Shown here: piece by piece, positions 1 to 34,566 of the stretch | How positions within the stretch are numbered: the first letter of the stretch is position 1 | Layout of the letters: each line of letters starts with the position of its first letter | DNA from: a virus | Virus record (IMG/VR): IMGVR_UViG_3300025644_000310 | Coordinates: 1 to 35,201 of that record | Reading direction: 5' to 3' (one strand) | DNA: 35,201 nucleotides | Translations under genes and position numbers: made by a program | The notes under the pieces: generated by a model | Database searches by the model: none | What the model saw: only the letters and a program-made list of their open reading frames with translations | What the model was told of the DNA's origin: nothing

Positions 1-246
1 TGTATCTGCATCTACTATCAATATTTGGTCGTAATCTATATTATTTGCCTCCAATATATCAAACATATAATATCGTTGCCAAGTTATTTTCATTTGTTCT
101 ATTGGTAACAATAAATCGTTCCATACTACAAGTTCACAATTATATTTATCACAAAAATGTTTCCAACTATTGATAGAATAATTATATGATTTATTTCTAC
201 CATCACCCAAATCAATGTTAGGTATAAAAACTACATTTTTACTCAC
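1..246 (-). CDS. Glycosyltransferase (GT-A-like), N-terminal part, runs off the left edge
   Basis: Manual translation from GTG at 246: MSKNVVFIPNIDLG...YDQILIVDADT; DxD-type motif at the window edge; start overlaps the end of the upstream radical SAM gene. Confidence 0.7.
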   Translation of the reverse strand, partial: MSKNVVFIPNIDLGDGRNKSYNYSINSWKHFCDKYNCELVVWNDLLLPIEQMKITWQRYYMFDILEANNIDYDQILIVDADT

Positions 247-1162
247 TAAATATACCTCGTTCTTCTTCAGAAGTACAACCACTCTTATTACATTTCCTAC
301 ACATCTGTAACAAATCTCTACGGCCTTTCTTTAAAGTTTTTCTATAATGTTCATAAGATTCATTTGTCCATACATCTTCTATACTTGTTTCCAAAACATT
401 TCCATGTATAACTTGATATTCCCAATCACAACAACATAATATTGCATCTCCATCCCATTTAATATACATTTGATTTGAAGGATACCCACAATCTTTTTGT
501 GGAACTGATATATCTGGATTTACATTTACAAGTCCACCTCTGTTCCAATATGTATGTGGACCATAATGTTCTTTCTTATTCTTATCTTCTTTTTTCTTAA
601 CTTGTTCTACATTATAATTTGATGATAAAATTATATTTACATTAGCTTCTTGAAAATGTTGCATTACTTCTATCATTCTTGTTGCATATTTATCATCAAA
701 ATAATCATCAAATTGTATCCTATTTAACCCCGCATCTATCATATCTCTCATCAACTCTTTTGTTAATCCCGTTCCGTTACTATCCATCTGAATAAATACA
801 TCAGGTAGATATTCTCTTGCTATTCTAATAAATTCAACTATTCTATCTTTATCCATTAAAGGTTCACTCATCAAGTATGGTGAAAACCTACCATTAAACT
901 CCAAATTAGCTAAATTCTTAACAATCTTTGTATAGTTTTCAACTGTCATCGTGTTATATGGAATACCCTTTTTCTTATTTTCAACCCTGTCCCATATAAG
1001 ATAATGATTAGGACAAAAATCACATTTCAAATTACAAAATTCTATTGTTTGTATTTGAATATTTGTAAATAATTGAATCCCCTTTACATAAACATCTGGT
1101 CTATGTGGGATTTCCCAAAGACCTTTACCGGCAGATAATATTCTTGGTAAATAATATTCCAT
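239..1162 (-). CDS. Radical SAM / SPASM domain protein
   Basis: CxxxCxxC (CNLKCDFC); C-terminal CGYP...DGDAILCCCDW...CRKC SPASM-like cysteines. Confidence 0.9.
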   Translation of the reverse strand: MEYYLPRILSAGKGLWEIPHRPDVYVKGIQLFTNIQIQTIEFCNLKCDFCPNHYLIWDRVENKKKGIPYNTMTVENYTKIVKNLANLEFNGRFSPYLMSEPLMDKDRIVEFIRIAREYLPDVFIQMDSNGTGLTKELMRDMIDAGLNRIQFDDYFDDKYATRMIEVMQHFQEANVNIILSSNYNVEQVKKKEDKNKKEHYGPHTYWNRGGLVNVNPDISVPQKDCGYPSNQMYIKWDGDAILCCCDWEYQVIHGNVLETSIEDVWTNESYEHYRKTLKKGRRDLLQMCRKCNKSGCTSEEERGIFSE

Positions 1163-13953: not shown

Positions 13954-15300
13954 TTAATTTACCTTTTTTAATGTTGGAAGTTTTATTTTCGGTAACTCTT
14001 TAACTTCACCGACTTTTTTTAACGTCGGGAGTTTAAGTTCCACCGGTTGTGGTGGAGCTTCAAAATTAGGTAAACATGCGTCGAGTATTTTCTCAAATTT
14101 TACAGTCATTGCATCAAGTGAGAACTTTGTTTTATTCATTATACCCTGTTTCTTAGCCTTTACCGTGTATTTATTATAATTATCAAAAACATCCTTTAAC
14201 ATTTTAGATGCGTAATTGTAATTTACAGTAAACCATTGAGTTCCTTTTATGTGCATTCCATTCTGTAATGATTCTTTCTTTACATCATTCATACTACCTG
14301 GTAATAATACAGACTTTTTACTATCCAGGAAATCTGTATGACCACTCCAGTTTGGTGCAATTACTGGTTTCTCACTTAAAGATGCCTCAAGTAATGGACG
14401 ACCAAATCCCTCACCGTGGGTGAATGAAACGTGAACCTTTACCTTTGGGTGATTGTATAAATCATTCATCTCATCATCTCTTAAATCACCGTGCAATACA
14501 TAAATGTTTGGTAAGTTACCCTCTACTGTCTGTCTTATTTGGTTCAACTTTGCGAGTATATCTTCTCTATCTAATATACAGGGTGTTGCTCCACTTGTTT
14601 TTAGAATTAGTGCAGGTTGGTTCTTCTTATTCTTAAATGTTTCCAAGAAGGTTTTAATCAGCATACCAAGATCTTTTCTGTCATTTCCTAAACCACCTTG
14701 TAACCAATGCCCCACGAATAGAAAACAAAAATCTTCTTTTATACTATCGAACTCGTCTACCAAATCCTTTGAAAATTCTTTTGTTGTTTTGTATATGTTT
14801 GTGTCTGCACCTTCAAATAAAACTTCTATTGGTGTTTGACATCTAACTTCACCAATTTTCTGTTTAGTTTGATTATCATGTTTATCAAATACGACCTTTT
14901 CAATACTTTCCTTAACAAATGTCGCTGGAACAATATTCAAGTTCATTCTATTTAATCCCTCTATCCATTCTGGGGGACACACGGTGGTTTCTAATCCTGC
15001 TGTGATACCAATATTAAATTTACCGATTGGTTGGAATTCATTTGGGACTACTATATGGATGTGAATATCTGGTTGTCTATCCATATTTGGATTATCTAAT
15101 AATCTCTCTATGATTGGAATATCATTTGGGTCATTTTCACTTAATGCATTTTGACTTGTGCTCCCCCACCTAACAGGCCATATTTTAATATCAAATTTAT
15201 TCATAGAAATCAATGACCTTGCAATATCTCTGGAGTGACTACCATATCCACTTCGAGTTCCCACCGGAGCAGTTATCAAAACTAAAGGTTTATAGCTCAT
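13954..15300 (-). CDS. GT4-like (GT-B) glycosyltransferase
   Basis: TRSGYG, HGEGFGRPLLEA, APNWSGHTDFL. Confidence 0.9.
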   Translation of the reverse strand: MSYKPLVLITAPVGTRSGYGSHSRDIARSLISMNKFDIKIWPVRWGSTSQNALSENDPNDIPIIERLLDNPNMDRQPDIHIHIVVPNEFQPIGKFNIGITAGLETTVCPPEWIEGLNRMNLNIVPATFVKESIEKVVFDKHDNQTKQKIGEVRCQTPIEVLFEGADTNIYKTTKEFSKDLVDEFDSIKEDFCFLFVGHWLQGGLGNDRKDLGMLIKTFLETFKNKKNQPALILKTSGATPCILDREDILAKLNQIRQTVEGNLPNIYVLHGDLRDDEMNDLYNHPKVKVHVSFTHGEGFGRPLLEASLSEKPVIAPNWSGHTDFLDSKKSVLLPGSMNDVKKESLQNGMHIKGTQWFTVNYNYASKMLKDVFDNYNKYTVKAKKQGIMNKTKFSLDAMTVKFEKILDACLPNFEAPPQPVELKLPTLKKVGEVKELPKIKLPTLKKVN

Positions 15301-15342
15301 ATATTTAAATCCTCTTCTGTTATTATTTTGAATTCATTTTTA

Positions 15343-16260
15343 TCAAACTTTATATAACGTAAATCGTTTTCTTGGTGTCCAGTTTTCAAGTGCAGTGTCC
15401 ATGTCATGTACCATACGTTTACACATATTTTTAGCTGACATTCCAATTTCTTCTAATTGTAAAAACTCCCTACCTAACTGTCCACATTCTTTTCTTTTTT
15501 CTGGTCCTTCATTATACCATTCTAATAATCTATCTGCTACATCATCCCATCTACATCTGTCGTCGAAAATATACGGTGTTGGAATTGAACCTTGTAAACT
15601 TCTATTTGATGGCCAGACTGGTTTTGCCCAATCACCGTAAGTAAGATCAGGATTGTCTTTCCATTTTCTGTCATCGTGTAGTGAATGAACCCAATCGTAA
15701 TCTTCAGTTGTTAGGAATTTACCCTTATATTTGAAGCCACTTGCATCCTGTAGACCACCTGTGGTATTTGTAGTGATTGGTGTTCCTGCCATTAGACTTT
15801 CGACTGTACCCAATCCGAAACCTTCATTACTTGCCATGTTTATAGTAACATCTGCAATATTATATAGAAAATTGAGTTGTTCGTCGTCTATCTTTTGGTG
15901 TGAGAATACAATATCGTAATCTGGACAAATTTCATTTACTACTACTGGTAAATCTGTTCCATTCTGGTCTACTGGTTGAGTGTGCATTAATAATACACAT
16001 TTGTCTGATTTCTCTTTGGGTAAGGTATCACAGAATGTTTTATATGCTAAAATCACGTCACTTGGAACTTTCCGTCTGATATTCCGATTATTCCAAAATA
16101 CTACGAAATCTTTATCTTTATCGTGGAACACTGATTTTCTATATCCTTGTAGTTTCTTCCATTTTTCCACATCTAACTCATTTATTGGGAAAAACTTATC
16201 TTCTGGAATACCATGTGGAACGTATGATAACATAACTTTACTTTTCTCGTTCATTTTCAC
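15343..16260 (-). CDS. GT4-like glycosyltransferase, C-terminal part
   Basis: YVPHGI, NNRNIRRK, SNEGFGLGTVES; own RBS AAGGAG before GTG/ATG. Confidence 0.85.
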   Translation of the reverse strand: MKMNEKSKVMLSYVPHGIPEDKFFPINELDVEKWKKLQGYRKSVFHDKDKDFVVFWNNRNIRRKVPSDVILAYKTFCDTLPKEKSDKCVLLMHTQPVDQNGTDLPVVVNEICPDYDIVFSHQKIDDEQLNFLYNIADVTINMASNEGFGLGTVESLMAGTPITTNTTGGLQDASGFKYKGKFLTTEDYDWVHSLHDDRKWKDNPDLTYGDWAKPVWPSNRSLQGSIPTPYIFDDRCRWDDVADRLLEWYNEGPEKRKECGQLGREFLQLEEIGMSAKNMCKRMVHDMDTALENWTPRKRFTLYKV

Positions 16261-24554: not shown

Positions 24555-24994
24555 GGTAGGTTCAGTTTTTTCAGTTCTTTTGTATCCGCTCCGTATTTCT
24601 GGAGAATAGTTTTGAGATTTGCCTTGTTCTGTTCGGTTGCATAGAATACTTCTAAATATTCGTGTGCTTCTTTAAGACTTGATTCATAGTACTTTGCTAC
24701 TATTTCTAATAACCATTTTGGATGTTTCATACTCTTTTTACCTTTTGTGTATTTCAACCATTGCTTACCCTTTGGTAATATATTGGTATATAACTTGTAT
24801 AACTCTTGTGGTCTTAAATTATATTTTTGGAACTCATTTACTATATCTACCCATTCCATTTTCATAGATAGGAAGCGATGTACCATATAATTAGACCAAT
24901 TTTTCTTTTCTTTATCATTGAGCGTATCCCAATAACCTTTTGTTTGTTTTCCTGTTATATGATTTATGTGGTCAAACAGTGTTTTTGTTTTCAT
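24551..24994 (-). CDS. Clamp loader small subunit, T4 gp62-like
   Basis: WSNYMVHRFLSM...VNEFQKY...LYKLYTNILPKGKQWLKY pattern; context of a gp44-like gene. Confidence 0.75.
   Translation of the reverse strand: MKTKTLFDHINHITGKQTKGYWDTLNDKEKKNWSNYMVHRFLSMKMEWVDIVNEFQKYNLRPQELYKLYTNILPKGKQWLKYTKGKKSMKHPKWLLEIVAKYYESSLKEAHEYLEVFYATEQNKANLKTILQKYGADTKELKKLNLP
24851..24991. repeat. Direct repeat copy A (141 bp)
   Basis: Matches 30852-30992 at offset 6001; 24894-24991 (98 bp) identical; 8 mismatches in the other 43 bp. Confidence 0.95.
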
Positions 24995-25054: not shown

Positions 25055-25843
25055 TCAAATAAAGTTTTCATTGTTTCCTTTTAACAACCATTCTTCATCT
25101 TCTAACCTTTTCTTTCCTCTACTAATAAGTAGTTGTAATTCTTCACTGGATAGATTATTTTTTTCTAATGTACCACCAAGTTTTTTCATCAGAATCTTCA
25201 AAAATTCATCATTAAATTTTGTGGTATCAATAGTTGAATCAACTTCCCATAGACCACCAACCACATCACTAACATCTCCACCATCAGGTTCAAATGATGG
25301 TGTTTTAAGTACATTATTAATATCCAATTCTTTAACTTTAGTTGCTAATTTAGAATCAAACTGATAAGTTATAGTTCCAACAGTTACATGACAATTATTT
25401 ATAACCTCATAACTACAACCGAAGAATTTTTTTTGTTTATTCCTTATTTTAAAAAATATATCATTACGACCATTCCAGAAAGTTTCAATTCCAAATTTAA
25501 AACAACATTCTCGTACCGCTTGTAAGAATAATGGTTTTACATCACGAGAAAAATATAAAATAAAATTAAAACAATTAGGACCTTCTATCCAATATGCCAG
25601 TTTATCATCATCTATGTTATCTGGATCTTCGTAAACTCTTACTATCGGATATTCTATTTCTCCATTAAAAAATGATGAAATATCTAATTCACTATTTCCA
25701 AAAAAAGCTACAATATGTTTTTTTGATGAAAATTTTATAACTGTAGGACAATTTGTATCAATTAAATTTCCATACTCCCAAACTGAACTATATATGTCGG
25801 GAGTAAGACTTCCTAAATTTAAATATTTAATCTCATTGGTCAT
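25055..25843 (-). CDS. Lipoate-protein ligase A-like (BPL/LplA/LipB fold), divergent
   Basis: WNGRNDIF...KKFFGCSY...GTITY resembles RND...KKISG; Gly-rich RRxxGGG motif absent. Confidence 0.65.
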   Translation of the reverse strand: MTNEIKYLNLGSLTPDIYSSVWEYGNLIDTNCPTVIKFSSKKHIVAFFGNSELDISSFFNGEIEYPIVRVYEDPDNIDDDKLAYWIEGPNCFNFILYFSRDVKPLFLQAVRECCFKFGIETFWNGRNDIFFKIRNKQKKFFGCSYEVINNCHVTVGTITYQFDSKLATKVKELDINNVLKTPSFEPDGGDVSDVVGGLWEVDSTIDTTKFNDEFLKILMKKLGGTLEKNNLSSEELQLLISRGKKRLEDEEWLLKGNNENFI

Positions 25844-26744
25844 ACGCGGTCTGTTTTTCTTTATAAATCAAGAAGATACCACCTGAAAGTAATCCCAAAC
25901 CTAATAGTTGATATACTGATGGTGCCGTGTCTAAAAAGAAATAGGCGATTATTACTGCAAAGAATGAACCAAAACAAAGTTCACCAACTCCTGCGTTACT
26001 GGCTCCAATGTATTTAATTGCTGTCCAATAACATAAGTATGCAATATAACTGGCCACTATAGCAATATAGAGAATTGCCAATAGATTATGAGTGGTTAGT
26101 TGTGAAATTGTAGTTGCTGGTGATTGTAATAATGAAGTATAAACAAACACTTGTAGAAAATCGTAGAACACGATAGTAAGTGGTTTATATTTCTTCATTA
26201 TAGATTGTCCTACTAACAAATATCCAACCCATGCTGCAACTGCCACTACACATAACAATACACCAGATGTAGTCAATGCTTCAGTTGAAAATGTGGGTAG
26301 AAATTCAATTGCAAACAATGAACCAACCGTACCCAACCCTACTGCTATTTTTCTCTTAGTACTGAACTTCTCTCCATACAAATACACGGCAACAAGTGCC
26401 AGTACAAATGGATAAAAGTAAAAGATACCATAGATAACTGGAATATTAGGATCCAGATATTCCCAACCGAACCAATATGTAATCAAATGGACGGCAAGAA
26501 ATGCACCATTGGTCAAAAATCGTTTTATATCTTGTTTTTCCACAAGAAACAGATTTTCACCAGTTCTATATTTTTGAAATAAGATGGTTACACCAAACAA
26601 AATAGTTGCTATCAAGAACCTTGTAGATAACAAAGTAACTGGACCTGCACCCTCTGCAAAGATATAACTACCTGTAACCTCAAGACTTGACCATGCAAGA
26701 ATTGAACCGAATAATATCATTATTCCTTTTGTAAAATTATTCAT
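25833..26744 (-). CDS. EamA/DMT-family transporter
   Basis: About ten hydrophobic segments in two repeats; YLYGEKFSTKRK, AIKYIGAS, QLLGLGLLSGGIFL. Confidence 0.9.
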   Translation of the reverse strand: MNNFTKGIMILFGSILAWSSLEVTGSYIFAEGAGPVTLLSTRFLIATILFGVTILFQKYRTGENLFLVEKQDIKRFLTNGAFLAVHLITYWFGWEYLDPNIPVIYGIFYFYPFVLALVAVYLYGEKFSTKRKIAVGLGTVGSLFAIEFLPTFSTEALTTSGVLLCVVAVAAWVGYLLVGQSIMKKYKPLTIVFYDFLQVFVYTSLLQSPATTISQLTTHNLLAILYIAIVASYIAYLCYWTAIKYIGASNAGVGELCFGSFFAVIIAYFFLDTAPSVYQLLGLGLLSGGIFLIYKEKQTAYDQ

Positions 26745-27588
26745 TTTTACTATCTCCTAACTTTAGAATACCGAGGTCGGCATTTATTTTAAAAGTGATA
26801 TCACCTTCACCACTAAACTCTGCGGATAAAAAACTACCAGGATACTCTCCATCAAAAGTCCACATAACCCCATAAAGTGGTTTTGCATCTTTATTAGGAA
26901 AACTCTCATATCCCGCAAGTAAATTTAACCCATAAAGTCCAGGTTTAATAACTGCTCGAGCGAAATAATACTCATCACTCAAACTATACTCAGCGATATA
27001 TTCTATCTTATCATTTAATCCACTAACATCAATGGATTGTCTTTCTTGATTATCAACTGAAAGTGCTACGAATTGATTTGCTACTTCATATGATACACGA
27101 GCAGAAGCGTAATCACTCCAAATGTGATTTATATCATCACCGAAATAAGTTTCAAGATAACCTTTTTCACCAAGTGCACCATAGACACTAACTCCCCTAC
27201 CGAGAACCAACTCACCAACATCCCAACTCGTTTGATAAGTAAACATATCTCGTCTTGTCAAATCAAGATATGGTAAATTAGAACCATATGGTATTAACTG
27301 CTGTCCAAATCCAATATTAAATTTACCACCATTGGCTACACTATACGGTTTATAAAATAATTCTTCAACATATATTTTTTCATCGTTCCACGTAGGACCA
27401 AAGAAAAATGTTGCGAACCATTTTGAGTCATCACTTTTTACATACGAAAAAAGTATTGGTTTACTAAACGATACAGAGTCTCCAACTTCAACATATCCAA
27501 TAACCGAATTTTTGACCGTGATTGATGATTGGGCTGATAATACTGAAACCATTCCAAGTATCATCAATAACCTTACTATTTTATTCAT
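26737..27588 (-). CDS. Secreted/outer-membrane beta-rich protein (porin O/P-like)
   Basis: Signal peptide ending VLSA-Q; GFGQQLIPYG resembles GQFKxPFG; alternating aromatic strands. Confidence 0.55.
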   Translation of the reverse strand: MNKIVRLLMILGMVSVLSAQSSITVKNSVIGYVEVGDSVSFSKPILFSYVKSDDSKWFATFFFGPTWNDEKIYVEELFYKPYSVANGGKFNIGFGQQLIPYGSNLPYLDLTRRDMFTYQTSWDVGELVLGRGVSVYGALGEKGYLETYFGDDINHIWSDYASARVSYEVANQFVALSVDNQERQSIDVSGLNDKIEYIAEYSLSDEYYFARAVIKPGLYGLNLLAGYESFPNKDAKPLYGVMWTFDGEYPGSFLSAEFSGEGDITFKINADLGILKLGDSKNE

Positions 27589-27619: not shown

Positions 27620-28771
27620 TCATATTTCATATCCAAATTCCAACATTTCTTTGTAAAACTTTTTTTCAATTCTCTTTCGTTGTTTTTTAGTGAGAATGTC
27701 TTTCCAATTTTGGTGTTTAAAATATTCTTTACTCATTGGGTAACTGGCCTCTTTATTCAGTTTTACCATCTTACTAAATGATGTACTTTCAATACACTTT
27801 TTAATTTTATCTTCATCATATGTACCACATCCCACATCATCAGTTAAAAATTTAATAATTTTAGAAAAATATTTAAAACTATCTTGTAATAAATCTTCAT
27901 ATCTAACAACTATTCCAGGATAACCATCCTTTTCTCCGTGTTCTTTCCAAGACATATAATTGTTATACCAATTTAATCTAAATTCTGGAAAATCATCTTT
28001 TTCAGATATATTCATACCATCAGTTGTTATATGGTCTATAGCATTATCAATACTAACTTCCATATATCTGGAATAAGAAATAACCACATCTCTTGGATCC
28101 CTAATTATATTAATATAACCAGCAGCCTTTGTGGCATCTATAAATAAATTACCATTAAGAGTGCCATTCTTATTATGAGTTGTAAGAAACTCAAAATTTA
28201 AATCAGGATCACCATGAGTCCACTCCATTTGTTGCTGGGCTCGTTGCCAATATTCTACAATTCTTTCTTTTTTTTCATCAATCTTTGATTTATATTTTCC
28301 GAAAAAGGTATCACACAAAAAATGTGGTGTTTTATCTATCAACATTTTTAAATAAAACTCTCCATCTTCTGTAAAATAATAAGCTCCTAAAAAACTTCTC
28401 ACCCAAGCAGTCCCACTCCGAGGATAAGTTGTAATCCATATAATTTTATTATTATTTATTGGCCTTTTTTTAAAATCAGGCTGAAGATTTACTACTGTTT
28501 TTTGTTTCCACAATCCATGTTTTTTCAATGATTCAATAATTAAAAATGAATTTTTAGCATCGAATCCAATAAAAAAATCATCTCCTATTTCTACTATTGG
28601 AACAGCAAATGAATGAGTTTTTTTAAACATTCTTCGTCTTTCTTCTCTATTCGTAACTACATCAATTTCTTCATATTCCAAAGATTGATTAGAAAGTAAT
28701 TGTTTAACCATATTGCAACCGGGACAATTTTTTATTTTTGATGATGTAAATAACTTTATTTTTGTAACCAT
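27620..28771 (-). CDS. Glutaredoxin-sulfotransferase fusion
   Basis: Start re-assigned to ATG 28771 (AAGGA RBS); CPGC and AVPIVEIGDDFFIGFD Grx domain; TYPRSGT and IIRDPRDVVISY PAPS-binding motifs. Confidence 0.88.
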   Translation of the reverse strand: MVTKIKLFTSSKIKNCPGCNMVKQLLSNQSLEYEEIDVVTNREERRRMFKKTHSFAVPIVEIGDDFFIGFDAKNSFLIIESLKKHGLWKQKTVVNLQPDFKKRPINNNKIIWITTYPRSGTAWVRSFLGAYYFTEDGEFYLKMLIDKTPHFLCDTFFGKYKSKIDEKKERIVEYWQRAQQQMEWTHGDPDLNFEFLTTHNKNGTLNGNLFIDATKAAGYINIIRDPRDVVISYSRYMEVSIDNAIDHITTDGMNISEKDDFPEFRLNWYNNYMSWKEHGEKDGYPGIVVRYEDLLQDSFKYFSKIIKFLTDDVGCGTYDEDKIKKCIESTSFSKMVKLNKEASYPMSKEYFKHQNWKDILTKKQRKRIEKKFYKEMLEFGYEI

Positions 28772-28799: not shown

Positions 28800-30416
28800 T
28801 TACATGGAATTTGTACATATTCCCTTTGATATCCACCATGAAGTGTTGTTACAAACAATACTACCTTTTAGCGTGGTATAAGAAGGAGCGTGGTTCAAAT
28901 TGTTGCTCTGTGCTGAGTAATAATAACAGGCTGTAGGGGCGCTAGGATAGTGCACAGTCCATGAATATCCATACGTCAGCCAATTGAGCCAGGGCGGAGC
29001 CGCACATGCCACATTATGCATTATCACTCCGTTAGCATAATAATAATCCTGGGGTTCAACATTAAGTTCGTGAATAGGAAACACCTGTGTTGAAGATGAA
29101 ACAACCGAAAAACTTGTTATCTTTAATGGTTGTCCGTCCTCACCTGCCAAATAATCTCCAACCGACAACTCTATTGTTGGTTTAAATTTCCATTTATTTT
29201 CACTTCCGCTAGTCAAAAGGTTTGTAAATGTACCAAATTTCTTATCACCATTTATTACGGTATATGAATCTGTATATCTATCAGCCCACTTTTCGGTGAC
29301 CTCAACATTTGATTGGGATGGTATTGACAAGCTTGAAGTTTCCCAAAGTTTCCACAAATAATTACCACACTTGTTAGCGTACCCATCCGATTCATCGGGT
29401 AACCCACTAATATTACGGACTTTTAAGAACGACCCTGTAACTACATTTTCTATGTTTGTATAACTGTCATCAGACATTAATACTTGACTTCCTGTCATAG
29501 CACCCTTTCGTGTAATAGTAGTAGTTGCATAAGAACCCGAATCACCTGATAAAATATAATGAGGTAATTGAGTTTGAAAAACATTCACATCCGCTGTAAT
29601 TGAACCACGTGGTTGTAAAAAAATATTTTCTTGTGGAGTCAGCATCACAATGCCCCTCACCTCGGAATAATAGGCTCCATTATAATTTAAATCGGGTTGG
29701 ATAAACTCCTCACAATAAGATTGAGAAAGTAAATAATCTTTATTATCATCCGTTATATCATAAAACTGAAAAGAATTCATAAGTAAAGTTTGATAATCTA
29801 CTGTGGGGTCTTTAATAAGTACATCTGGAACACCAACACCATTAGAAAATCCATCAGGTAAATCTGCCATTTTTCTTGGCATCAAAGATTCAATTCCAGA
29901 TGAAGATGCGAAATTCCTAAATTCTCTTTTATCCGATGCTAAATAATCAATAGGACTTGCAGAATCAAATCCAAATCGTAACACAAAAGTAGTATTAGGA
30001 ACATCAAAATCTGGTACCGGAGTAGGATAGGAGGGCTGAACATAAATACTTGATGTAAACCCATCTATGTCCAAACTGGCTGTTATATCACCCACTAAGT
30101 TCAAAGATGGTATAACAGTTCCTTCTTCATTTCGTGTAACCAAAACTATAGTGTCATAATTATTTGCTTTCCACCAAGTAACTGCACTATCTAAAAAATT
30201 AGTTTCAGGTGGAGTTTGAATATTCGTGTTAAGTTCTAATAACTTTAATGATCCACTTGAAGGGACCCAATCATATCCGGCAATTACTCCATAATTATCA
30301 CCCTTTCCCGACCAATATTCAGGATTACTTCCTGTTAAAAAGGGAGCGGCAGCTTGCAAAGACTGAGTTACAATAGAACTACTATAATTATTAAAACTAA
30401 AATAATTTAATTTCAT
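28800..30416 (-). CDS. Circularly permuted ATP-grasp-like domain + Hint domain + 70-aa Cys/aromatic-rich C-terminal peptide
   Basis: N-terminal GYDW...LLELNTN, later IKDP, EEFIQP, EVRG; Hint 29013-29504 (GAMTGSQVLMSD...ELNVEPQDYYYANGVIMHN). Confidence 0.7.
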   Translation of the reverse strand: MKLNYFSFNNYSSSIVTQSLQAAAPFLTGSNPEYWSGKGDNYGVIAGYDWVPSSGSLKLLELNTNIQTPPETNFLDSAVTWWKANNYDTIVLVTRNEEGTVIPSLNLVGDITASLDIDGFTSSIYVQPSYPTPVPDFDVPNTTFVLRFGFDSASPIDYLASDKREFRNFASSSGIESLMPRKMADLPDGFSNGVGVPDVLIKDPTVDYQTLLMNSFQFYDITDDNKDYLLSQSYCEEFIQPDLNYNGAYYSEVRGIVMLTPQENIFLQPRGSITADVNVFQTQLPHYILSGDSGSYATTTITRKGAMTGSQVLMSDDSYTNIENVVTGSFLKVRNISGLPDESDGYANKCGNYLWKLWETSSLSIPSQSNVEVTEKWADRYTDSYTVINGDKKFGTFTNLLTSGSENKWKFKPTIELSVGDYLAGEDGQPLKITSFSVVSSSTQVFPIHELNVEPQDYYYANGVIMHNVACAAPPWLNWLTYGYSWTVHYPSAPTACYYYSAQSNNLNHAPSYTTLKGSIVCNNTSWWISKGICTNSM

Positions 30417-30841
30417 TTAATTTCTTCCCAATTACATTTTTTAAATACATTTATGCTTTTTATATTCCACCCATCTACCATACTATAAATATCAATTTTC
30501 TTCTTATTTACCAAATTTGTAATTGAATATATTAATTGCTCTCCATATCCCGTATTTCTATAATCTTTATGTACATATAAATTACAAAGTTCATTTTCTA
30601 TGATATTAAACCAAACCCACCCCACGATTTTATTATTTATTTCTAAAATATTAAAATACCATCCATCTTTTAATCGTTGTTTTGCATCTTCCATCGACCA
30701 CATATCTTCCCAATTCAATTCTACTTGAAATTCATCTAGAGCCCGTTTTAATTTTTCTTCATCTAATTCAAAAACTTGATTTATTTCTGGTATAATGTCA
30801 ACTTCTTTATAATTTATTAAATCCGGTTTAAATTTAATCAT
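30413..30841 (-). CDS. GNAT acetyltransferase
   Basis: IVGWVW, LYVHKDYRNTGYGEQL acetyl-CoA motif, NIKSINVFKK. Confidence 0.88.
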   Translation of the reverse strand: MIKFKPDLINYKEVDIIPEINQVFELDEEKLKRALDEFQVELNWEDMWSMEDAKQRLKDGWYFNILEINNKIVGWVWFNIIENELCNLYVHKDYRNTGYGEQLIYSITNLVNKKKIDIYSMVDGWNIKSINVFKKCNWEEIK

Positions 30842-30998
30842 TTATTGATGTCCAATTCATATTCATAGATAGAAAACGGTGAACCATATAATTGGACCAA
30901 TTTTTCTTTTCTTTATCATTGAGCGTATCCCAATAACCTTTTGTTTGTTTTCCTGTTATATGATTTATGTGGTCAAACAGTGTTTTTGTTTTGGTCAT
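30834..30998 (-). pseudogene. Truncated 5' copy of the gp62-like gene (54 aa)
   Basis: MTKTKTLFDHINHITGKQTKGYWDTLNDKEKKNWSNYMVHRFLSMNMNWTSIND*; directly follows 30999..31274. Confidence 0.85.
30852..30992. repeat. Direct repeat copy B (141 bp)
   Basis: Matches 24851-24991; 30895-30992 identical to 24894-24991. Confidence 0.95.
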
Positions 30999-31274
30999 CT
31001 ACAAATCTAATCTGGAAAGTGAATCATCTTTAGGCTCTTCTTCTATTCCACTACCTTCTAAAAATACCTTTGGGACTTTTCCGCATTGGCCACATGAGTA
31101 TACTTGGATCGGAACGAGTGCTTCTTGTCCGGTGGGTGATAGGATTGCAGATATTCTCTTTATTATGTGTGAAGTAATAAATAGATAATTTCCACAATCA
31201 TCACATTTTATTGTGTCTGCCTTTGTTAAATCAACCTTTTGTTGAATCTGTTGTGGTGGTTTTCGTTTAGCCAT
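30999..31274 (-). CDS. Small Zn-ribbon protein
   Basis: CDDC ... CGQC. Confidence 0.75.
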   Translation of the reverse strand: MAKRKPPQQIQQKVDLTKADTIKCDDCGNYLFITSHIIKRISAILSPTGQEALVPIQVYSCGQCGKVPKVFLEGSGIEEEPKDDSLSRLDL

Positions 31275-32055
31275 TTTGTAACTCCTCTAATGTAACCATT
31301 TCAACTCCGTGTTTCTGAACTACACGAGTTGTACATTTCTGTGCAAATTGTATTGCACTTTCTATGTTATTTGTTTCTAAATATTCCTTAACAAGTCCAG
31401 CTATAAATGTATCACCTGCCCCACTAACATCTTTAACTGGAACTTTTTCTACTGAAAATACTTTATCTTTATATCTACATCCATTACCTCCAAGTGTAAC
31501 TATAAGTTTATCATCAAATCCTTCTTCAGATAGTAGTTCGTGATTTTTCTGATATTCTAACTCGTTTATTTTTATGAAATCTGCACACTGTATCCACTTA
31601 CCAAGTTTTTTCTTTGTATCTACAAATACATTATTATTATTTTCACAAATGAATTGTATATCTTCTTCTTCTAAAAATCCCTTACAGTAATCTGAAATAA
31701 TGATTGCGTCAAGCTTGGTTTTGTGTCCAAATATTGGAGTAAATGAATTATCTACTATGCCACTTAGTATTTTCTTATCTATTCTATCACAATAATCATG
31801 TTCATCAACTCGTAATACCATTTGATTTGACCGACTATCCACGTAACGCTTCTTCACAATACTAGTTTCATTTGTAAGTGAATATACAGTCATTTCTAAT
31901 GATTCAACATTATTCACCACATTTTTAGACATTCCTTCATTTTTAGTTTCATGTGTTGGAACAAATATTGGAACTGGGGCCTCTGGACTTATTCTATGTA
32001 TATCACCGTATATAAACACATCTAAGCATTTATCTCCAATGACTAAAACATTCAT
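31267..32055 (-). CDS. rfaE: RfaE/HldE-like PfkB kinase (heptose-7-phosphate kinase-like)
   Basis: VIGDKCLD, RISPEAPVP, ISDYCKG, KINELE, DVSGAGDTF. Confidence 0.88.
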   Translation of the reverse strand: MNVLVIGDKCLDVFIYGDIHRISPEAPVPIFVPTHETKNEGMSKNVVNNVESLEMTVYSLTNETSIVKKRYVDSRSNQMVLRVDEHDYCDRIDKKILSGIVDNSFTPIFGHKTKLDAIIISDYCKGFLEEEDIQFICENNNNVFVDTKKKLGKWIQCADFIKINELEYQKNHELLSEEGFDDKLIVTLGGNGCRYKDKVFSVEKVPVKDVSGAGDTFIAGLVKEYLETNNIESAIQFAQKCTTRVVQKHGVEMVTLEELQNG

Positions 32056-32281: not shown

Positions 32282-33010
32282 TTATTTTATTATATTTAAT
32301 ATATTAATCATTGTTGCCATAAAATTTATTTCTCTATCCACGATGTTTTTTTCTCTAAACTGACCTTCAGCCAGTTCTAATATACATTCCGCGACATGAC
32401 CACTCGCCCATGAATCCAGTTCATCAAATAGTAATCTGAACATATCAGCAAATTCTGTAACTTGGGTGTCTGCTAATAATTGTCGTATATTCTTAAATGC
32501 GCTCTTCTTATCTTGTGACTTTAGTATTTCTAATAATTTTAATTTGTAATCATTTTCAACCATACTACGTTTATCAACAGTCAATTTACCATTTATAGAT
32601 TGCTGTTGGACTGAATTGATTATTCGTCTAATGTCTGGATACCCACTATTAACGTTCAATACTATGTCCTCTACGTTGTATTCTATTTCTTCCTTATCCA
32701 ATATACCCTTTATATGTACTGCAATTTCTTTTTTGGATGGTGGAATTATCTGAAATGTTTGACATCTACTTTGGATTGGATCAATTATTCGTTCTACATA
32801 ATTACAGGTTAGAATAAACCGAGAATGTTTACTGAACGTTTCCATTAGATTTCGTAGTGCTGCTTGACCTTGTGGGGTGACGAAATCACAATTATGTGTA
32901 AGTGTTTCTGTTTTACCTATTACGAAATTATGATTACCGTCAACTGACAAGTCATACACGTGCTGGGTGTCTTTTAATTTTTTTATAGATTTAATCTTTA
33001 TCTTGTTCAC
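32282..33010 (-). CDS. Split intein C-part (40 aa) + C-terminal 202 aa of clamp loader (gp44/RFC small subunit)
   Basis: VYDLSVDGNHNFV...LTHN|CDFVTPQGQAALRN, FILTCNY, PIQSRC, PDIRRIIN; GTG start. Confidence 0.95.
   Translation of the reverse strand: MNKIKIKSIKKLKDTQHVYDLSVDGNHNFVIGKTETLTHNCDFVTPQGQAALRNLMETFSKHSRFILTCNYVERIIDPIQSRCQTFQIIPPSKKEIAVHIKGILDKEEIEYNVEDIVLNVNSGYPDIRRIINSVQQQSINGKLTVDKRSMVENDYKLKLLEILKSQDKKSAFKNIRQLLADTQVTEFADMFRLLFDELDSWASGHVAECILELAEGQFREKNIVDREINFMATMINILNIIK
32891..33010 (-). other. Int-C of a naturally split intein
   Basis: Blocks F/G, terminal His-Asn, +1 Cys at 32888-32890; six Lys in the first 13 residues. Confidence 0.93.
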
Positions 33011-33884
33011 TATAACCTATTCCCACATACATTTTATTTAATTGTATTTTGTTATTATCAATAAATATTTCTGAATTTATATAATCCATAATATTATTTT
33101 CATTTATCCACTTGAATTTATATCCACTCACATCACAATGTTTTATTAAGCTGTCTATTTTTTTTGTTTGTTTTAAGAAAAAACTTCTTGGTTTTATTTC
33201 ATACAATATCTTTGTATCTTTATCGTAAAAATCACCCATATAAACTCTACCATTATCCGTTTTTTTAGTTCTACATTCCTTACTTTCATATTCTAAATGT
33301 TGATTACTATACCAAAAACAAGCTTCCCACGAATTCCTAAACTTTTTAACTTTACCATTAACTTCTATTATAGCATCCCAATGTGTAAATGTATTTGTTA
33401 TTGGTGGTGTAAATTCACCATTGGAAATCTTTTCTCTCATCAACTTTGAGTTTAATTTTGCATTTCTTTTTATATTAGCCTTACCCTTTTCAGTCTGGTT
33501 AAACTCTTTCATCTTTTTAGAATTGTGTTTTCCAAGTTGTGTATAAAATTGTTTAGCTTCATCCGATTGTAACCATTTTTTCTTTGTATGTTGTATCTTT
33601 TTAGCAATTTTTATATTATCTCGTTTTCGCATCCATACTCTATTACCGACACACTGATTACAATATTTTCCATTATTTTTTGTATGAAATCTAGAATCAC
33701 AATGTTCACATTCTTTCAACCTACCTATTTTTTTACATTCATAACATAACAATTGATTCGACGCTTTAGCTACATAATCTTTACCACAACTGTCACAAAT
33801 CTTATCATAATAATGAACTCCACCAAGGCCATTTCTATTTGCGGCATCTCTTAACTTTTGCCTTGTAGATTTTTTTATACTCAT
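32991..33884 (-). CDS. Free-standing endonuclease (TnsA-like PD-(D/E)XK) between the split-intein halves
   Basis: Multiple CxxC; FRNSWEA...LEYE...YMGDF...YEIKP; own ATATTTAT motif (33907-33914) and GGAG RBS. Confidence 0.8.
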   Translation of the reverse strand: MSIKKSTRQKLRDAANRNGLGGVHYYDKICDSCGKDYVAKASNQLLCYECKKIGRLKECEHCDSRFHTKNNGKYCNQCVGNRVWMRKRDNIKIAKKIQHTKKKWLQSDEAKQFYTQLGKHNSKKMKEFNQTEKGKANIKRNAKLNSKLMREKISNGEFTPPITNTFTHWDAIIEVNGKVKKFRNSWEACFWYSNQHLEYESKECRTKKTDNGRVYMGDFYDKDTKILYEIKPRSFFLKQTKKIDSLIKHCDVSGYKFKWINENNIMDYINSEIFIDNNKIQLNKMYVGIGYSEQDKD

Positions 33885-33948
33885 TTAACATCTCCATTGT
33901 TCATATATAAATATAACCAACTTGTGTTTTTCGAGTAAAAAAATCTAA

Positions 33949-34566
33949 CTATGGTGATAAAATATGATTATAGTTATCCAACTGATTTGTTTTAACTACA
34001 ATTGGATTACCATTTTTATCTTCGACGTACCATTTATGATCTTCAGTGCAAACAACTACTTCACCATTTTCAAGTTCAATCTCATACACCTCTTGTTCAC
34101 CCTTATCCCACAAGTGGAATGGTCTCCACTGCCATTCTTCTTTTTCAACATTCCAAGATTTAACTAAATCATTGTTTTCATCAACATCTTTTATCGGAAC
34201 TTGAATCTGTTCCCCATTCGATAATACAGTAACTAATGTATTTTCATCCAAACACTCATCAAGTACGACCACCTTTAAATCTTTAAATCCAATAGTTGAT
34301 ACGAATCCTTTTATTTTATTTCTAACAGAATCTACACTATTTTCATCACTCGCATTTATGTAAATATAGTCACATTCAATACTATTTGAGAGTATTTTTG
34401 CGAGAGTTGTCTTACCGGTTCCAGCTGGACCAAATAATAGTAAGTGTGGGATGTCTCCACTTTCCAAATAAACCCTTACCTTTTCCTTTAGGTGGTCATT
34501 ACCAATGTAAGTGTCAAGATTAGTGGGCCGATATTTTTCTACCCATAGGGTATGTTCAGTTTGCAT
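33949..34566 (-). CDS. Clamp loader (gp44/RFC small subunit) N-terminal 104 aa + split intein N-part (101 aa)
   Basis: WVEKYRP, GPAGTGKTT (Walker A), INASDE, VVVLDE (Walker B) then CLDENT...CTEDHKW and stop. Confidence 0.95.
   Translation of the reverse strand: MQTEHTLWVEKYRPTNLDTYIGNDHLKEKVRVYLESGDIPHLLLFGPAGTGKTTLAKILSNSIECDYIYINASDENSVDSVRNKIKGFVSTIGFKDLKVVVLDECLDENTLVTVLSNGEQIQVPIKDVDENNDLVKSWNVEKEEWQWRPFHLWDKGEQEVYEIELENGEVVVCTEDHKWYVEDKNGNPIVVKTNQLDNYNHILSP
33952..34254 (-). other. Int-N of a naturally split intein
   Basis: Cys1 block A, TxxH block B (TEDH); strongly acidic (about 22 D/E vs 8 K/R by hand count). Confidence 0.93.

Follow-up and report, generated by a model that had tools for sequence, protein, structure and literature searches.

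Locus and domain architecture of the ligase–Hint gene

The IMG/VR record IMGVR_UViG_3300025644_000310 is a 35.2-kb fragment of an uncultured virus, estimated to cover ~19% of the genome, with 31% G+C and nearly all genes on the same strand. Its full length (35,201 nucleotides) is the window analyzed here. Judged by its gene content, which includes clamp-loader subunits, an exonuclease, homing endonucleases, and several glycosyltransferases, the record is the replication and auxiliary region of a large, uncultured marine T4-like myovirus. Within this region, on the minus strand at 28800..30416 (stop codon 28800–28802), lies a gene for a 538-aa protein that consists of an ATP-grasp domain, a Hint domain, and a C-terminal tail. 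An earlier reading of the sequence alone (the original prediction) had placed the Hint domain at 29013–29504 and the tail at 28803–29012 of this open reading frame (ORF), and both the coordinates and the domain borders were confirmed. In the mapped loci, which represent three subgroups of relatives, the gene lies between clamp-loader genes, in the order gp44, a conserved Zn-ribbon ORF, usually a GNAT acetyltransferase gene, the ligase–Hint gene, variable tailoring genes, and a gp62-like gene.

The 538-aa protein has no match in Pfam, PHROGs, or NCBIfam, except for one weak PHROG match on Hint residues 381–471, which is labelled "virion structural protein". Because these family libraries fail to recognize the protein, its Hint and ATP-grasp domains were assigned from a predicted structure, from fold searches, and from a match to a Protein Data Bank (PDB) profile. 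The full protein was modelled with AlphaFold2 from 48 sequences, with a mean predicted local distance difference test score (pLDDT) of 84, and folds were compared using Foldseek, VIA-align, and the VIA wide search, the last of which is independent of Foldseek.

Homologues from marine metagenomes form 33 clusters, which share 62–98% identity with the protein and are nearly all 532–541 aa long; in two of these clusters, the tail is followed by an additional lectin-like domain, Laminin_G_3 (LamG). An alignment of close homologues is well conserved before H467-N468 and poorly conserved after it. A profile search against 1.8 billion representatives retrieved 320 relatives, which fall into four groups: proteins with the full N-domain and a Hint (20–29% identity), many Hint-only proteins, proteins with only the first ~175 residues, and fragments. 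The Hint is present in all 95 aligned members of the ligase–Hint family, even in clades without the His-Asn pair, and a distant subgroup (the P0053 type) is represented by at least 163 loci in IMG/VR. The family is common in uncultured marine T4-like phages, and its gene always occupies a single hot spot within the replication module. A collection of 50,697 cultured-phage records, searched by tblastn with P0001, P0053, and P0043, contained no homologue, the sole match being to the Hint alone. We found no paper on a fusion of an ATP-grasp ligase, a Hint of the bacterial intein-like (BIL) type, and a CBM5/12-like fold. The combination of a ligase, a half-disabled Hint, and a swappable module in one protein is an undescribed design made from three known building blocks.

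The ATP-grasp and Hint domains

Residues 1–304 (29505..30416, minus strand, as are all parts of the gene) were assigned to a circularly permuted ATP-grasp ligase domain of the glutathione synthetase (GS)/GspS type. Outside the Hint, Foldseek matched the model to eukaryotic glutathione synthetases (1m0w, E 3.9e-6) and to E. coli YjfC. In the VIA wide search, with alignments over model residues 2–287, the GS enzymes of trypanosome, yeast, and soybean (2wyo, 1m0t, and 3kaj) reached Z 10.8 with 233–253 residues aligned, followed by YgiC (7uka, Z 10.2), the GspS synthetase domain (2io7, Z 10.1), 3n6x (Z 9.1), Cp1B (Z 8.7), a fungal E-64 amide ligase (PMC12568646), and trypanothione synthetase (Z 8.3). 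The non-permuted RimK and ArgX align only to residues 88–287, with Z 4.9, and unrelated folds begin at ~Z 5. The alignments over residues 2–287 run in sequence order, so the N-domain is permuted as in GS, and the circular permutation that had been proposed from its motifs is borne out. The domain shares with the GS/GspS/YgiC-YjfC/Cp1B clade the permuted topology, in which the ExN strand precedes the Lys and the hinge (Z 8.7–10.8 over ~230–250 residues), but it is smaller (~300 residues compared with 370–600), has no detectable sequence similarity to these enzymes, and is attached to a Hint.

The motifs expected of such an enzyme are present and conserved, and follow one another as D49...E61-x-N63, K202, E236-E-F-I, and E252-x-R254. 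Among the 95 viral relatives, which diverge down to ~20% identity, D49, E61, and N63 are identical in every member, K163, K202, P197, and D198 in 94/95, E236 in 92/95, and K/R254 in 91/95. D49 and E61-x-N63 (30228..30272) form a putative Mg2+/phosphate-binding triad, which comes first owing to the permutation and whose metal ligands are mapped by motif analogy. The near-invariant K202 (in PDVxIKDP), the hinge-like motif E236-E-F-I, and R254 (29655..29813) form the putative ATP-binding half. The roles of individual residues (Mg2+ ligands, phosphate-binding Lys, and hinge Glu) are our assumption, by analogy with D-Ala:D-Ala ligase and human GS. More than 70 relatives that end four residues past His-Asn or run into more Hint domains show the same invariance of the catalytic set. 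Conservation of this kind across 95 members is the signature of an enzyme selected for catalysis, and the N-domain is very probably an active ligase.

The first ~175 residues of the ligase domain, with the D...ExN motif and K163, are also found alone, fused to MORN repeats, or inside longer proteins (P0045, P0050, P0054, P0056, and P0060; L002:3671-4543, L002:13837-16515, L006:1255-2652, and L003:6448-7035), several of which share islands with the full gene.

Residues 305–468 (29013..29504) adopt a predicted Hint fold that is nearest to BIL domains. The model matches T. thermophila BIL2 (6y75) with Z 19.0 and a root-mean-square deviation (rmsd) of 2.1 over 141 aa, the C. thermocellum BIL domain (2lwy) with Z 17.7, and mini-inteins and Hedgehog with Z 13–17; in total, more than 120 chains of the Hint superfamily reach Z>=8. 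Model residue 305 corresponds to intein position 1 and residue 468 to the terminal Asn (RecA intein 1..440 aligns with model 305..468). The PDB profile search likewise aligned residues 417–470 to BIL2 (6y75/6tmm, E 3e-4), ending at His-Asn. BIL2, the closest solved relative, is a conjugating and not a selfish Hint (PMC8616854).

The Hint residues point to one-sided decay, in which Cys1 and TxxH are gone and His-Asn and block F are kept. Intein position 1 is Gly305 in the window protein and G/V/T across the clade, and the block-B TxxH is replaced by "GTFT"; this motif is intact in canonical relatives (such as P0070, "TFEH"). H467-N468 (29013..29018), the predicted Asn-cyclization site with the scissile bond N468|V469, is invariant in the 16 aligned proteins and 14 DNA loci of the clade, and across the whole family His is found in 83/95 and Asn in 77/95 members. 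The window Hint keeps the block F/G pattern "VE..D.Y.NG" together with His-Asn, as do the Cys1-bearing canonical members of the clade. These Hint-only relatives have Cys1, the block-B T-x-x-H, the pattern "VE..D.[FY]..NG...HN", and a non-nucleophilic residue behind it. The +1 residue is Val in the window and V/A/I/T/P/G elsewhere in the clade, with Thr in one allele only, and the first invariant residue past His-Asn is Cys471. The original prediction, that the Hint lacks both nucleophiles and retains an intact terminal His-Asn, thus agrees with the alignment. Since position 1 carries no nucleophile and TxxH is lost, neither an N-terminal thioester nor splicing is to be expected, and only the Asn-cyclization end remains.

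As far as Amitai 2003 and Dassa 2004 are summarized in PMC7765530, A-type BIL domains have a conserved His-Asn and no +1 nucleophile, cut at their C-terminus through Asn, and occur in hypervariable protein regions. The window Hint shares with the A-type domains 2LWY and 6TMM/6Y75 the fold (Z 17.7–19), the C-terminal His-Asn, an adjacent hypervariable segment, and, throughout the clade, the general absence of Cys/Ser/Thr at +1. It differs in that it lacks the N-terminal Cys (Gly/Val/Thr instead) and the block-B TxxH needed for the N-S acyl shift, which leaves only the C-terminal reaction, and in that it is fused behind an enzyme in a virus. By these sequence features, it appears to be a derivative of the A-type BIL family and not a full member. 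A fossil mobile intein was considered and rejected, as every member with a complete ligase domain also has a Hint; the only N-domain proteins found to lack one are N-half fragments or paralogues of 290–892 aa.

The hypervariable C-terminal module

The tail (residues 469–538; 28803..29012) was predicted as a small beta module. Modelled alone with 15 alleles, it folds into five strands with pLDDT 87 and a predicted template-modelling score of 0.72, and in the full-length model it is preceded by a low-confidence linker (residues 472–477, pLDDT <50). The top Foldseek matches are the CBM5/12 chitin-binding domains of Serratia ChiB, S. griseus ChiC, and a V. cholerae deacetylase, with probabilities of 0.97–0.98 and TM scores of 0.55–0.59, yet E values of only 0.46–1. 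In the VIA wide search, the tail matched the CBM5 of ChiB (Z 6.8, rmsd 2.1), the chitin-binding domain of S. griseus ChiC (2d49, Z 6.6, over all its 53 residues, 26% identity), the V. cholerae CBM12 (Z 5.1, rmsd 1.2, 29% identity), the receptor-binding domain of the cyanophage Pam1 tailspike (7eea, Z 6.2), and the Pa193 fibre (Z 5.7). The nine best matches of this search are all chitin-binding domains or phage receptor-binding tips, at Z values of only 5.0–6.8. With CBM5/12 domains and tailspike tips, the tail appears to have in common a small beta fold and an exposed aromatic pattern (Z 5.1–6.8, rmsd 1.2–2.2, 45–53 residues, 21–29% identity); compared with CBM5/12, it has four invariant Cys, longer loops, hypervariability, and no Pfam match.

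The window tail contains 4 Cys, 5 Trp, 7 Tyr, 2 Lys, and 0 Asp/Glu. The invariant columns comprise four singly spaced Cys together with Y, V, P, Y, P, G, W, K, and G, and no acidic column is invariant across the tail alleles of the clade. The spacing of the four Cys is disulfide-like, and they may well form disulfides. A tail-profile search for other carriers retrieved only the ligase–Hint family and its fragments, and an Atlas feature search with the tail yielded no usable match. The original prediction had envisaged a released peptide as opposed to an invariant structural domain; the models instead indicate a structural domain, although a hypervariable one, so that the tail is, by its predicted structure, neither a linear peptide nor invariant, but a folded binding-type domain.

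Two metagenome proteins, P0134 (315 aa) and P0151 (379 aa), carry a canonical Hint (Cys1, TxxH, HN) between Cys/Tyr-rich segments, and their C-terminal segment, of the type C-x-Y-Y ... P-x-Y ... W-I-x-x-G-x-C, bears a faint likeness to the tail. A relationship between the P0134 and window tails was dismissed as marginal (hhalign E 0.047, probability 1%).

These properties of the tail bear on the proposal, also part of the original prediction, of a ligase with its own substrate attached in cis. This proposal did not hold up: the window tail is devoid of Asp and Glu, at which an ATP-grasp enzyme could form a side-chain crosslink; relatives that have no tail conserve the active site as well; and the tail is predicted with confidence to be a folded domain. 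That the tail is the substrate of the ligase is therefore unlikely. The same evidence weighs on a graspetide-like system, in which the ligase would crosslink its own tail in an ATP-dependent reaction, the Hint would free a mature RiPP-like peptide (RiPPs being peptides made by the ribosome and modified after translation), the GNAT would acetylate it, and a porin/EamA pair encoded downstream would export it. An ATP-grasp enzyme, a GNAT, and an exporter constitute the microviridin gene set, which the window shares; the GNAT has RimI-type matches below the cutoff, and a radical SAM/SPASM gene occurs in one related island. However, the window ATP-grasp belongs to another clade, the GS/GspS small-molecule type and not the RimK type, a folded domain takes the place of a leader/core peptide with Thr/Ser/Lys and Asp/Glu, and EamA-type carriers transport small metabolites, not an 8-kDa domain. 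We regard a graspetide-like system as very unlikely.

The sequence variation of the gene is concentrated in the tail. Pairwise identity is 45% in the tail compared with 78% in both other domains, and among close relatives 46% compared with 85–87%. Across the 14 DNA loci, the proportions of synonymous and nonsynonymous differences (pS/pN) are 0.70/0.38 in the tail and 0.25/0.09 and 0.27/0.11 in the other domains, the overall ratio of nonsynonymous to synonymous rates (dN/dS) being ~0.3 in all parts of the gene; pN exceeds pS in the tail for the two closest of the three close pairs listed. Nucleotide identity falls from ~0.93 to ~0.40 exactly at codon 469, the first codon past His-Asn, and 87–94% identity is regained immediately past the stop codon. 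Because identity breaks and recovers at these points, we interpret the tail as a 210-nt cassette whose alleles are old and recombine, on a scaffold that is conserved. The cassette border coincides exactly with the predicted scissile bond. A diversity-generating retroelement was rejected as the source of this variation: the tail DNA occurs only once in the 35-kb record (~19% of the genome), and mutagenesis restricted to adenines could not account for alleles that differ at ~50–60% of their nucleotides.

In polymorphic toxin systems, PT-HINT (PF07591) likewise has a Hint that is directly followed by a polymorphic, cassette-like C-terminal module with sharp borders. By analogy with pretoxin-Hint cargo or tail-fibre tips, the tail could be set free as a toxin, a bacteriocin, or a ligand that blocks receptors, or could end up on the virion as a receptor-binding tip; its resemblance to the C-terminal domains of the Pam1 tailspike and Pa193 fibre and the weak "virion structural protein" match on the Hint fit such a role. 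The rest of the locus, however, does not. An immunity-gene or polymorphic toxin model was rejected, since no co-varying downstream gene is present and the flanking DNA is 87–94% identical straight after the stop; the locus lacks a secretion or trafficking domain, the cargo has a 70-aa lectin-like and not a toxin fold, and PF07591 matches the extra Hints of relatives but not the window protein. Moreover, the gene sits in the replication module between clamp-loader genes and not among late structural genes, and the protein begins with an enzyme domain whose active site is conserved. An effector or adhesin function of the tail thus seems improbable.

Proposed mechanism and genomic setting

The best explanation for these features, which we hold with about even confidence, is that a lectin-like specificity module, both releasable and swappable, is attached to a ligase through a one-sided Hint. 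The product would be a cytoplasmic three-part protein. Its first part would be an active, small GS/GspS-type ATP-grasp amide ligase that joins a carboxylate to an amine on a substrate other than the tail and works together with the GNAT encoded upstream. The second part, a BIL-derived Hint that would neither splice nor cut at its N-terminus, would keep His-Asn and the block-F residues of the clade, most likely for one slow, single-turnover Asn cyclization that breaks N468|V469. The third part, a 70-residue CBM5/12-like beta module with four invariant Cys on an aromatic scaffold and a hypervariable surface, would be exchanged between phages as a 210-nt cassette and serve as a specificity or binding module, most likely for glycans, which is released or at least displayed on a flexible linker.

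The fate of His-Asn in the wider family bears on the predicted cut. The pair is kept where something follows it, namely in the tail-bearing clade, in P0037, and in the P0053 group, and has decayed (to NS, HY, HW, HH, or HD) in clades that end within ~10 residues, in which the GNAT is absent. In the P0053-type group, the His-Asn of the first Hint is followed by [IL]PPK and the end of the protein, or by one, two, or three canonical Cys1 Hints. These sibling phages share with the window the ATP-grasp domain, a half-disabled first Hint with His-Asn, the clamp-loader site, and the upstream GNAT; they differ in their low identity (20–25%), in having [IL]PPK and/or canonical Cys1 Hints after His-Asn instead of a CBM5/12-like cassette, and in lacking the glutaredoxin (Grx), porin-like, EamA, and LplA-like genes of the window clade. 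Among 80 P0053-type loci, 52 contain a GNAT homologue, directly upstream where mapped.

On the IMG/VR contigs of this group (L023–L102), the C-terminal extensions measure 4, ~145, ~300, or ~445 aa and contain 0–3 extra Hints, whose copy number often shifts between close relatives (9 cargo changes on the tree).

Several observations weigh against release of a lectin-like module. Retention of His-Asn does not require cargo, because 17 relatives keep it with only 4–5 residues behind it, and the ligase-domain tree shows only 4 changes of the His-Asn state, so that the link between His-Asn and cargo is suggestive and not significant. In the tail-bearing clade, the block-F position carries Asp where many inteins carry His, and the +1 position is Pro in one tail allele. 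Asn cyclization uncoupled from the first steps is slower, about 200-fold (PMC7765530). Cleavage at N468|V469 by Asn cyclization is a plausible prediction, which we consider slightly more probable than an uncut bond. Furthermore, none of the 15 tails matches Pfam, including PF02839, at E<=10, and the tail should be called CBM5/12-like and not a member of the CBM5/12 family, the assignment being structural only, with Z <7. Finally, lysis would be the only obvious exit for a disulfide-type module that is synthesized in the cytoplasm and lacks a signal peptide.

The main rival to a releasable module is a protein that does not cleave. Its Hint would be a permanent spacer or scaffold devoid of catalytic activity, and its CBM5/12-like tail, still attached, would bring the ligase to a polymer or partner that varies between strains (an envelope glycan or a precursor of one, for instance) for modification. 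The presence of the Hint in all 95 members, including the clades without His-Asn, implies a role beyond cargo release and favors this alternative, as do the abundance of glycan and tailoring enzymes in the window and related islands (glycosyltransferases, a heptose-kinase-like PfkB, and sulfotransferases), the LamG lectin-like domain that one subclade adds behind the tail, and the fact that an enzyme joined to a CBM is a common design. Yet His-Asn and block F are under purifying selection in the clade while the N-terminal catalytic residues of the Hint have decayed, the four singly spaced Cys suggest disulfides, which would be odd in a tethered cytoplasmic domain, and the cassette border falls exactly on the scissile bond. 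We therefore view an inert spacer as possible, but clearly less likely than a releasable module.

If the cut is real, the Hint would have been kept only for the C-terminal release of a swappable binding module, and the protein would be a compact natural case of cargo delivery by Asn cyclization without thiol chemistry, and a possible template for self-cleaving tags. A bolder version treats the protein as a polyprotein of enzyme, one-shot protease, and cargo. Asn cyclization would free a disulfide-type, lectin-like 8-kDa module, the RimI-like GNAT would cap its new N-terminus, and the downstream glutaredoxin would handle its Cys; phages would swap the module because its target would be a host surface structure that differs between strains, which it might bind in order to hide receptors or to label cells that are infected or lysed. 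For the capping and the Cys handling, the neighboring genes for the RimI-like GNAT and the glutaredoxin provide leads and not evidence, and we consider this version improbable; it would imply a new class of phage-made, intein-released extracellular factors. The sharply bordered hypervariable cassette itself marks a contest over phage–host (or phage–phage) specificity, in an early-gene region rarely searched for such contests.

In the window, the genes from the GNAT to the LplA-like gene lie on the same strand as the ligase–Hint gene. The GNAT acetyltransferase gene (30413..30841), a recurrent partner of the family, precedes it directly, and its stop codon overlaps the start of the ligase–Hint gene (ATGA), which indicates translational coupling; the best named matches of its product are RimI-type N-terminal acetyltransferases, below the cutoff. 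Directly downstream lies a gene for a glutaredoxin–sulfotransferase fusion (27620..28771). The next-downstream gene contains a Grx domain in all six mapped loci of the tail-bearing clade, whereas no Grx gene is present in the 80 P0053-type loci. The Grx is fused to Sulfotransfer_1 in the window and free-standing in other clade members (L003:9641-9931 and L017:7650-7991), in which case a separate sulfotransferase may sit upstream of the ligase gene instead. Next follow genes for a 283-aa porin-like protein with a signal peptide (26737-27588), which language-model features place closest to the named cluster Porin_O_P (score 0.97, to be taken as a lead), an EamA transporter (25833-26744), which always follows the porin-like gene, and an LplA-like protein (25055-25843), the last of a clade-specific block at 25055..27588. 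The order porin-like, EamA, LplA-like is conserved in the loci L002, L003, L006, and L017, and the set of Grx, porin-like, EamA, and LplA-like genes is restricted to the tail-bearing clade. A 141-nt direct repeat flanks the 6-kb block from the GNAT gene to the LplA-like gene: one copy (24851..24991) is the 5' end of the gp62-like clamp-loader gene, and the other (30852..30992), 6001 bp away, is 94% identical to it. Because the 5' end of the gp62-like gene is thus duplicated on both sides, the sequence suggests that the block came or moved as one insertion. Among the neighbors encoded in other islands are P4H-type 2OG oxygenases, sulfotransferases, SET domains, an Orn/Arg decarboxylase, one aaRS-like protein, and the radical SAM/SPASM protein.

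The window also encodes a 91-aa Zn-ribbon protein (30999-31274; C..CGN ... CG.CG) with a highly conserved core and a variable C-terminal tail; the corresponding ORF comes after gp44 in 69 of the 114 loci retrieved, and all four subgroups are represented among these 69. It was considered as a LysW-like carrier for the ligase and rejected, as its C-terminal tail is not conserved. The adjacent PfkB-family kinase (31267-32055) is closest to heptose-7-phosphate kinase (RfaE domain I) and, together with many glycosyltransferases in 13954-16260, points to envelope-sugar chemistry in the phage. The gp44 clamp-loader gene (32282-34566) is present in three pieces, as a "fractured gene" with a split intein: the N-terminal part with the start of the intein (33949-34566), a free-standing endonuclease ORF (32991-33884), and the C-terminal end of the intein ("...THNC") with the remainder of the clamp loader (32282-33010).

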